A stretch of 52,327 bases of DNA from Girardia tigrina (taxonomy: Eukaryota), in contig MQRK01219748.1 of assembly GCA_001938485.1 (NCBI GenBank), forward strand, positions 1 through 52,327, given 5' to 3'. The translations under genes were made by a program, and so were the position numbers. Of the stretch, positions 14,136 to 17,100 are shown one piece after another (position 1 is the stretch's first letter; each line of letters starts with the position of its first letter). The notes below the pieces were generated by a model. It did not search any database, was not told where the DNA came from, and saw only the letters and a program-made list of their open reading frames with translations.

Positions 14136-17100
14136 TGCGGTCGGAAACCCATCACAACTTATTAGCAACTACTGCGGTTGAGAGTCGATTAAAAAACAAT
14201 AACACGCAATCCACAAACATAAAGAAGAAGGACGGTTAACAATATAATACATGTATTTGAGATTAATGAAATTCATCCCGAAACGACCTTCAACCTCTTA
14301 TAGGTCGGCAGAACATTGGAAGTGCTGTTTGAAAGCTAGAAATATAACATGAAGGAAAATAAACAGTTGAGAAAAACTCACCCGATGAAAAAATAAATCG
14401 ACCAACCGCCCCGACACAGGCAAGAAACATGGCAGGATATCCACAAGGGTGACCCATCGGTGACTGAAGGACTCACGAGTAGAGACAATAAACCTTAAAA
14501 GGAAAAAGAATTAATTAAAACAAACCCGAAAAATAATAAAATTTCTTACCGAAACACCCTGTGGAGCTGAGAGGTCATTCGACCCACTCCGTATAGCCCC
14601 TCGCAGGAAGGACCCCTGAATGGAACCCGTGGAACGCCGGTCGATCCTCGAAAGAAGTTATTCACCCTTAAAGAAAAAAATTTTATTAAAAAACCAGACA
14701 AAAAATAACAAAGTCACCTACTGAATTACCCAATTGGGTTAAGGGGTCAACCGACCATCCCACGAAAGATCTTCACGTGGGCAATCCGTGGACGAAACCG
14801 GCGAAGTCGTAGGGCCACCCTGAGGAAAGTTATAGGCCCTGAAAGATCAAACAATTAATTAAGAAAAACAGAAAATTAATTAATCTTACCATGAGTCAAC
14901 CCAGAATCCGAAAATAATCGTCAGCTAACGAATCATCCATGAATCAGCAGCAGGCCTGTTTCAGAAATCTGGTAGTGTGTAAAGACACACAAGCATTGGA
15001 TCCTATAATAAAATAAAATTTTTTTTAAAATTTCGAAAAATTTTTAGAGACACACTTACCAGCCCAACCAACCAGCATCGCGGAATTTTGAGACGATTGG
15101 TTGGCAGAACCTGGTTGGTCACTCGAAGACGACAGGACAACCCAAATGAAATATAAAAGAGAAATCATTTTTAACCAAGTCGCACAATTTTGATAGACGC
15201 TTGAGACGACGTATTAACGCACCTTCAAGAAAACCAATTTGAGCAGCGAACCGCAGTAGCGCAACCCAACGAAATCAGGAGGAAGAAACAAGTTAATAAC
15301 CAGAGGAAAACGCTAACGATCAGCCACAGAGCGGATTCATTGGCGTTGTACGGCAGCGAAATCGAAAAGGAGAGCTACAGCCGCGACTTGAGACGACCAA
15401 TTCGAGTGCAGAACCGTGACTGCGTACCCTGACTTACTATCTAGGCAACCGGCGAAGAACGACGCGTGAACAAACAATCGACCCGAGCTATAACACTCCC
15501 CGGATACTATTACAGTAAAAATTAAATTAGTGTGTTGTATTTATCTTATATCGATGAATTTTATTTGGGTTTAAAAATTTAAATAAACATTTTGAATTGA
15601 ATTTATTTTAGATTGAATTATAGTTTATATTTAATCTTTTTCCCTTTTTCTAGTAGTTAATTCAGTTATAAACAATTGTTGATCGAATATAATATTACCT
15701 AACCGAATTTAAGTGCCGATGGGTTATTCTCCTTTGCCGATTTAGCCCAGACGGCCACGAGTTCCAAGCCGTTAGGTCTCAACAGCCGCCGCCTTTCGTA
15801 GCCGTCCCCATCGCCACCGTCGTTCTACATCATAGATGTCTCGGAGTGATTGTCGATCGCCTGAATCGACCAATGAAGGGCGCAACATCTTAATAATCGT
15901 CGATAAGAGACCGTTACCACTAAGTTGTTCAACGGTAGTGATCGTGTTGAGTGGATTCCAGCTAGCGTGGAATCACGAGTTGCCTAGATTAATAGAACGG
16001 CGACCGAGTCGAGAGAAACTCCGTTCAGCCAGAAACACGATGGAAAAACCCGACGGAGGTTTGATTTAGTGTGACCTCGAGGATAAGATTGGAATATTAA
16101 AACAAATATATATTTTTTTGAACTAAAATTTTTGTATATAATATAAATTTTACTATTAATTACTTTCATGATTTTATTATTTGTCATTAGATTTTTATAA
16201 TTTCCGTATGACCTTTTTTGCAGAGTTCGATTACATAATTAACTGGATCATTATGATAAATTTGTAATTTTTTAAAATCATTAGGATGAATATGTAGAAA
16301 TTAAATAACGAAACCTATGATCAAAATTTCTGCGAAAATTCGTAAATTTTGTCTGATAAATGTTATTTTATCAAATTTCGAAATTCTACAAATCCCGAAT
16401 CTGGTTCTGTAAATGATTATAATGAATATAAAACTTCGAAGCAATTATTTGCACAATTTTTAATCTTCATTGTTTTCATGATGGCTGGATACGTCAGAAC
16501 GATCAGCTTAAAGTTTAGTTTAAAATTGATTAGAATAAAATGATATTTATTTACTATTTTAAAAATTGTGAATATCGTTTGAGGTTGTTTATTAAACATA
16601 AAACATCGTTTACTAAATTAATAAATAGTTATGGTTAATATTTATAAGATATGGTTAATATTTGAAATTAGTTCTCCTGAGAAAACCGGCAAATTTGGAT
16701 AGGGATTTTCTCTTAGACTCTGTAAAAAAATAATGACAGAACCCCGAATTAGATGTCCGTTGTTATTAGTTGCCTCTGCTAAACAATATATGACTTAATA
16801 TTATGAGGAAAAGCATTATAAACAAGAGCATTATAAGGAAGAGATGTCTAGAAGACGTAAGGAGCTTGATAAAAGCAGAGATGAGGCGACCAGATATAAT
16901 AGTATTCCGACGACGACTTTATAATGATCTCTAATTTTTACGATAAATTAACCTTTCAAACATATGATACCGTAAGTCACAGACACTAACACACCTCTAC
17001 ATGCACACATAAGCGATGCAATTATCGGAGAATTACACAGTTATATAAATTGAAATCATTCCCTATTGATGCTGACCCAGGTGGGGGGCCCATAGGTCAT

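Follow-up and report, generated by a model that had tools for sequence, protein, structure and literature searches.

A putative spliced antisense non-coding gene in the U3 of a giant Burro-like LTR of Girardia tigrina

Spliced antisense RNAs are already known from several retroelements. HeT-A and TART of Drosophila make multi-intron non-coding antisense RNAs from the element's 3' non-coding region near the promoter (PMC2615633, PMC1636488, in excerpt), and the excerpt of PMC2615633 calls the role of this antisense splicing elusive. These are non-LTR telomeric elements whose splicing is variable and partly cryptic, whereas the introns described here are fixed, duplicated in tandem together with their exons and contained within one LTR. 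The retroviral RNAs BLV AS1/AS2 and HTLV-1 hbz are spliced, polyadenylated and antisense, and come from the 3' LTR; AS1 has ambiguous or no coding potential and is proposed to silence the LTR (excerpts of PMC4855707 and PMC10186651). They have one intron, and because their exon 2 belongs to the internal genome the RNA cannot be produced from a solo LTR; here there are three to six introns, placed within U3 or at its edge. For micropia, Grande and Retand, element-encoded antisense transcription has been proposed to regulate retrotransposition, but it is internal, between pol and the 3' LTR, and the excerpted PMC7264820 names no multi-intron antisense gene in an LTR.

Giant Gypsy elements of the Burro/GYPSM1 kind occur in dugesiid planarians, and the element studied here resembles them in having one giant polyprotein that includes gag, a zinc knuckle and a ubiquitin-like domain and places a fusion glycoprotein of mononegavirus-like type in frame between gag and pol, as well as LTRs of several kilobases (PMC6431247, in excerpt). 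It differs in that no antisense or intron-bearing LTR gene is described in that excerpt. A literature search that included excerpts of PMC6431247, PMC8532177 and PMC7264820 gave no description of such a gene, with Grohme 2018 and its supplements, which may bear on novelty, outside its scope. Against these excerpted sources, what is new is an array that lies wholly in the LTR, is built of tandem intron and exon units of fixed length and is available to solo LTRs.

The giant LTR and the sense strand of its element

The window, by which we mean the whole stretch of 52,327 nt that was analysed, contains a solo LTR of 3,164 bp with TG...CA ends at 14133-17296 (plus strand), from a Burro-like giant Gypsy element. 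It had been described in the initial annotation as a giant LTR-like unit, and the description holds, given a primer site, a purine tract and gag-env-pol ORFs in related loci. The flagged stretch is repetitive, with 40 scored matches among 1,335 candidates in the 1.43-Gb AT-rich animal assembly. In 20 longer loci the left kilobase and the right 240 bp are conserved and the middle varies. Twelve LTRs for which both ends were found measure 2.8-4.6 kb and have TG...CA ends, joined in 8 of the 12 by a 4-bp target-site duplication, the combination that marks LTRs of Gypsy/Metaviridae; none is left flanking the window copy. Homology to the window stretch stops near 15190 in most copies, and because 14 of 16 complete LTRs have a TATA box at the end of this conserved stretch, the module is most simply taken as U3. 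The modules and related pieces in the window are as follows.

14133-15180, plus strand: putative U3, a conserved module of about 1.05 kb that holds the antisense exons and introns and has the sense TATA box at its end
15152-15159, plus strand: sense TATA box TATAAAAG; the 14 of 16 complete LTRs have TATAAA[AT][AG] here
15181-17060, plus strand: variable R/U5 region that differs from one subfamily to another and probably contains the putative antisense start
17061-17296, plus strand: conserved 3' LTR module, followed in 5' LTRs by a tRNA-Pro primer site
10715-13681, plus strand: second LTR copy, 5'-truncated within exon 3
5624-5985, plus strand: 5' fragment of a diverged LTR, with the last intron at 5833-5884 (minus strand) and a poly(A)-like motif at 5726-5735
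28409-28664, plus strand: isolated LTR 3' module

The sense start site would lie about 25-30 nt downstream of the TATA box. The module at 17061-17296 contains a GGGCCC palindrome, hairpin-like repeats and a stretch resembling a primer site, and a packaging or priming role for it is a guess. Three LTR 3' ends of the family (13446-13681, 17061-17296 and 28409-28664) and three 5' parts lie within 23 kb in one orientation. A second TATA box near 17183 and a minus-strand donor near 17109 were considered and rejected, neither being kept in diverged LTRs. A sense intron in R (15515-15653) was likewise rejected: no contig joint matches it, and by eye most copies have a T-rich block with AATAAA, which is more likely the sense poly(A) region.

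The strand of the element was established from its internal region. Three LTR right ends run into the primer site, the junction of LTR 3' end and primer site has 158 matches against 0 for a reversed control, and the primer site is complementary to host tRNA-Pro(TGG) genes. At the other end, 14 of 25 loci have a short purine tract and then the start of an LTR after the element's last ORF; the tract was located by walking outward from that ORF, and a pattern search for a pure-purine tract found nothing, the tract being short. Downstream of the primer site and on its strand, Pfam reports capsid, zinc knuckle, ubiquitin-like, fusion glycoprotein, protease, reverse transcriptase (RT), RNase H and integrase domains. 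One frame of 2,888 residues (with N gaps) holds capsid, CCHC, ubiquitin and Monjiviricetes fusion domains, with the capsid and ubiquitin matches below the Pfam cut-offs; fusion glycoprotein, protease and RT share one frame. Protease precedes RT in locus L144, and RT, RNase H and integrase follow one another in L143, which is the protease-RT-RNase H-integrase order. The 5' LTR of L125 is 76% identical to the window module. Since the tRNA-Pro primer site, the purine tract and the strand of the gag-env-pol ORFs agree, the genome RNA of the element corresponds to the plus strand of the window and the five introns discussed below are antisense to it. The check on LTR orientation that had been proposed from primer site and purine tract is thereby answered.

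The giant polyprotein, with gag, CCHC and ubiquitin-like domains and an env in frame between gag and pol, has the hallmark layout of Burro, an assignment made by comparing domain layout with the published description. A Pfam search of the element ORFs reported no BIR, ankyrin, BCL2-like, MATH or dUTPase-like domain. After the integrase, Burro loci have a further ORF (L143:3550-7614; L146-L169) of more than 1,100 residues without a Pfam match. Purifying selection maintains this ORF in a young family with 151 matches (omega 0.24, from 41 codons). Between primer site and gag, the sense strand holds several short ORFs of coiled-coil-like character (L082:8208-9570, L119, L125, L133).

The antisense array, its splicing and its conservation

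The minus strand of U3 carries the following features, listed in the antisense direction.

15142-15185, minus strand: 3' part of I0, a sixth antisense intron, which would span the sense start and TATA box; no spliced contig
15060-15141, minus strand: antisense exon 1, 82 nt
15003-15059, minus strand: intron 1, 57 nt, spliced in contigs
14890-15002, minus strand: antisense exon 2, 113 nt
14839-14889, minus strand: intron 2, 51 nt, spliced in contigs, 97% conserved among copies
14722-14838, minus strand: antisense exon 3, first of the tandem units, 117 nt, or 121 nt if donor 14717 is used
14667-14721, minus strand: intron 3, 55 nt from donor 14721, with donor 14717 a possible alternative
14550-14666, minus strand: antisense exon 4, the second tandem unit, 117 nt
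14494-14549, minus strand: intron 4, 56 nt, with only an unspliced record in contigs
14382-14493, minus strand: antisense exon 5, the third and most variable unit, 99-112 nt in most copies
14336-14381, minus strand: intron 5, 46 nt, with only an unspliced record in contigs
14230-14335, minus strand: terminal antisense exon, with the poly(A)-signal-like AATA[ACT]ATGTA at 14248-14257 followed by a G+T-rich tract; its 3' end is a prediction

Introns 1 to 5 all have GT..AG ends, are 46-57 nt long with 16-28% GC, and are flanked by GC-richer exons. These five minus-strand introns had been proposed from the window alone, and both their sequence and some 30 other copies bear the proposal out, apart from the donor of intron 3. 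Their size had been likened to that of a 44-nt host intron, which is indeed present in the annotated MAP2K-like kinase fragment near 49.5 kb. The suggested paralogy of 14718-14838 and 14550-14666 extends further, exons 3, 4 and 5 all being related. Splice sites also persist, as had been claimed, in the other LTR pieces: the copy at 10718-11130 keeps intron 2 (10733-10783), a shortened intron 1 of 36 nt (10897-10932), the I0 acceptor (11015) and a TATA-like site (11025-11032), and intron 5833-5884 is kept in the diverged copy near 5627. The acceptor of I0 near 15142 is AG at that column in 21 of 31 copies and is lost in the window copy; its donor falls within the variable region in other copies. 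This acceptor overlaps the TATA box, and the pyrimidine tract of I0 is the sense TATA box read in reverse. The poly(A)-like motif near the LTR 5' end is found in the antisense direction at 50 of 65 U3 ends, against 8 of 65 in the sense direction, with a downstream G+T content of 0.71.

Splicing was assessed with contigs from one run of one study (X1), compared with positions 14050-17350. These contigs were taken as RNA by guess (no run is registered as RNA; share of words 0.12) and give no strand, ends or level. Among the 12 joints listed, two with CT..AC ends fall exactly at intron 1 (15001/15059) and intron 2 (14837/14889), while a third, also at intron 2, is off by 1 nt. The joint 14994/15060 corresponds to intron 1 spliced in copies L020 and L030, whose letters in between match, and 14667/14764 to intron 3 in L023 and L025, with splicing from donor 14721 and no copy matching at 14717. 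The initial annotation was therefore right about an intron at 14667-14717 but not about its donor, which by the one contig that could be matched to a copy here lies 4 nt further upstream, at a column that reads GT in 21 of 30 copies and GC in 6. A further joint, 14667/14730, resembles the same event and fails the strict matching test; 6 of the 12 listed joints correspond to no intron. Unspliced contig records span introns 3-5, as sense RNA or DNA would. For I0, I4 and I5 the X1 run lists no spliced contig, which is not evidence against their splicing.

For intron 2 the assembly has 33 genomic matches that bear the intron and none that lack it. No intron-less genomic form of introns 1 and 3 was found in the assembly either, by a search that had no intron-bearing positive control. 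As the assembly yielded no intron-less form, splicing of minus-strand RNA at introns 1-3 accounts for the joints better than DNA does. Spliced sequences from family copies, on which the initial proposal depended, thus exist among these contigs. Like the antisense RNAs of HeT-A/TART and BLV AS1, this RNA is antisense to genome RNA, spliced and, by the sequence tests given below, apparently non-coding; the splicing is seen at three of its six introns, in one run taken as RNA by guess.

The splice dinucleotides are retained at 90-100% per site in about 30 other copies (rows L004, L008, L006 and L007 were left out as duplicates): 29/30 donors and 28/30 acceptors for I1, 29/30 and 29/30 for I2, 26/29 and 28/29 for I3, 29/29 and 26/29 for I4, and 24/25 and 24/26 for I5. 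The mean pairwise identity within the family is 0.90, 0.97, 0.88, 0.86 and 0.74 for introns I1 to I5, and 0.91, 0.85, 0.80, 0.61 and 0.63 for exons E2 to E6. The statement that intron interiors diverge is therefore reversed within the family: there, introns show higher identity than their neighbouring exons. The same layout, with 2-4 repeated units, recurs in diverged subfamilies that share 65-75% identity with the window. Under one scoring rule applied to both strands, at least two introns are found on the antisense strand of 46 of 62 U3s and on the sense strand of 1 of 62 (means of 3.3 and 0.26 introns per U3), so the antisense intron array is not a product of chance.

The array consists of tandem repeats of intron plus exon, each of about 170 bp. 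Seventy units have a mean identity of 0.53. Forty of these were recovered by the exon interior alone, and 38 of them have the acceptor (background AG 2.7%) and 39 the donor; the other 30 were queries picked with an acceptor, and 29 of them have the donor. This retention of splice sites suggests that selection acts on the spliced array. Young elements are 90% alike in the internal region (28 pairs), about 70% in U3 exons (69-72%, 3 pairs) and 76-87% in introns. A comparison with shuffled sequences, inflated by gapped alignment, does not enter these figures. The contrast between internal region and U3, seen in the 3' LTRs of L147, L153 and L165, and exon variants that look shuffled among copies suggest frequent exchange of U3.

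A proposed antisense gene and the competing explanations

The reading we favour, with a probability of about 0.58, is that the U3 of this LTR carries the element's own antisense Pol II gene, whose long non-coding RNA crosses the element's own TATA box and is probably self-regulatory. Transcription would begin in R/U5 and run backwards over the sense start and TATA box, the RNA would be spliced at three to six short introns, and polyadenylation would follow about 70-130 nt inside the LTR 5' end. With both start and polyadenylation placed inside the LTR, each LTR, solo or proviral, would contain a complete antisense gene. Being antisense to the genome RNA, the introns survive each cycle of retrotransposition, and there is no paradox in their presence. 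The exons appear to have arisen by tandem duplication of one intron and exon unit of about 170 bp, whose sequence varies fast while its length is fixed. Convergent transcription could damp the LTR promoter, and the antisense RNA, being the complement of the U3 end that all sense genome RNAs carry, may form duplexes with them or enter small-RNA pathways. With its introns it would be a stable, normally processed transcript, and selection on the element would keep these introns.

The initial annotation had left a choice between an antisense spliced lncRNA and a spliced leader made together with an unspliced packaged genome. Orientation, contig splicing and the lack of a coding signature favour the lncRNA. 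The primer site, purine tract and ORFs place the genome RNA on the opposite strand, and we reject the leader, whose probability is negligible, because the introns are antisense to genome RNA and there invisible to the spliceosome. A decaying fragment of a captured host gene, carried as a passenger in the LTR, is very improbable. The short introns are of host type, and antisense capture is a route by which introns ride in a retroelement; against this, there is no match to a protein or RNA family, the number of units changes by tandem duplication among subfamilies, and the splice sites persist while the exons change, unlike a passenger.

More has to be weighed for a fast-evolving micro-protein, with a hydrophobic N-terminus in exon 2 and variable modules of 39 codons that are possibly alternatively spliced. 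The inner units are 117 nt (39 codons) with equal phase at both ends, and most of them lack indels (58 of 81 units have offset 77); a 55-codon ATG frame with a hydrophobic start runs across intron 2 and is open in 12 of 31 copies. This frame has the fewest stops, 14 against 35-51, or 11 against 22-23 when the top site of each frame is left out. However, the best frame has an omega of 1.02 (null 1.02 +/- 0.16) and pN/pS is 0.81 against a null of 0.83; omega is about 1 in all frames, and within the window family it is 1.01 and 0.79, against 0.24 for the element's own terminal ORF as a control. Positive selection could mask an omega below 1, and some conserved codons do vary at the third base, but several others vary at positions 1-2 with the third fixed, third positions are conserved like first and second ones, and no excess of third-position variation was found (p 0.38). 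These codon-position tests used 55 of the 81 units, after 6 non-unit prefixes and the units with net indels were dropped. A 10-nt frameshifting insertion is common to 7 of 31 copies, stops in all three frames of exons 1-3 are common to most copies, including a late stop in exon 3, and the last units are 99-112 nt. Stops in all frames of 14890-15002 and 14718-14838 had been reported from the window; they are there because the frame of the window copy is broken at its start and inside. The exons tried gave no Pfam match at the cut-off and no usable Atlas match. A Pfam match of exon 4 to an Ebola-like HR1-HR2 was set aside as chance, at 16 bits against a cut-off of 27 and absent from a paralogue. 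We consider the micro-protein improbable and, from these sequence comparisons, read the spliced RNA as non-coding.

The units could instead be U3 enhancer repeats constrained as DNA, through factor sites or a nucleosome spacing of about 170 bp, with incidental splicing of antisense read-through whose AT-rich spacers resemble host mini-introns, and an RNA without a role. The position of the units just upstream of the sense TATA box, the higher conservation of spacers than exons and the divergence of young U3 exons relative to the internal region (3 versus 28 pairs) all suit this explanation, as enhancers evolve fast. So does a 10.5-nt periodicity of conserved exon positions (p 0.04 across the full spectrum, the band having been noticed after the fact). 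When 30 diverged units were folded as an alignment, the only shared structure was a 4-bp hairpin, GGGTC-N4-GACC, which doubles as a DNA palindrome. What an enhancer does not need is GT..AG on one strand, and yet splice sites, strand, pyrimidine tract and a length of 44-65 nt persist at 53% exon identity; the antisense poly(A)-like motif (50/65) is also present, and no nucleosome WW/SS dinucleotide rhythm was found in the units. We regard the enhancer explanation as possible but unlikely. The 10.5-nt rhythm and the high intron conservation (97% in I2, beyond the needs of splicing) fit a constraint at the DNA level and keep that option open, and an antisense RNA and an enhancer role can coexist.

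The RNA does not behave as a known structured RNA such as a ribozyme or miRNA precursor. An Rfam scan of 10600-17400 gave 0 matches at E up to 1, on neither strand did a single exon fold better than shuffled sequences (z from -1.66 to +1.04), and no global covariation or conserved global fold was found in the 30 diverged units; folds at the family level are uninformative, the sequences being too similar. A likeness to twister or hammerhead, seen by eye, was dropped for want of an Rfam match. A more speculative and rather unlikely extension is that U3 serves as a modular, hypervariable effector cassette. Its tandem 117-nt exons would be exchanged and would diversify among Burro subfamilies, and alternative splicing would yield subfamily-specific guide RNAs or 39-residue peptide modules, directed against host silencing or rival elements and made also from solo LTRs.

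Introns that are fixed, multiplied together with their exons and kept across subfamilies about half identical point to selection on the element, and they supply many natural variants. Solo LTRs are numerous (first-look candidates number 1,335 and 2,345), and each may make antisense RNA, so that together they could be a large source of it; Burro elements are under PIWI control in S. mediterranea (PMC8532177, in excerpt). Annotators should also be warned that such LTRs will be called multi-exon genes.

Other contents of the window

A broken Burro stretch with env, linker, protease and RNase H at 6100-10068 (plus strand) adjoins the LTR fragment near 5627 and is interrupted at 9961-10641 by a Gypsy RNase H piece on the opposite strand. 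By eye, the ORF at 7767-8723 has a motif in common with the start of the Burro polyprotein in L143. A further broken element lies at 19835-24456 and 33124-33973 (both minus strand) and is partly duplicated at 33.1-33.8 kb; its order is gag-env-pro, with zinc knuckles in gag, a fusion glycoprotein of Monjiviricetes type and an ORF resembling a protease. A short motif occurs at 27403, at 40081 and at the end of L143, three times just before an assembly gap or contig end, and may be either a high-copy repeat or an assembly artefact. Host sequence is represented by RPF1 (Brix domain) at 2719-3396 (plus strand), a single long exon that, at about 45% identity to diverse animals, does not place the host (the Burro elements suggest a dugesiid planarian), and by two separate MAP2K-like kinase pieces at 29818-30279 and 49050-49500 (both minus strand), the second with the 44-nt intron. 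Finally, a MULE-like DNA transposon with terminal inverted repeats of about 310 bp occupies 50143-51849.
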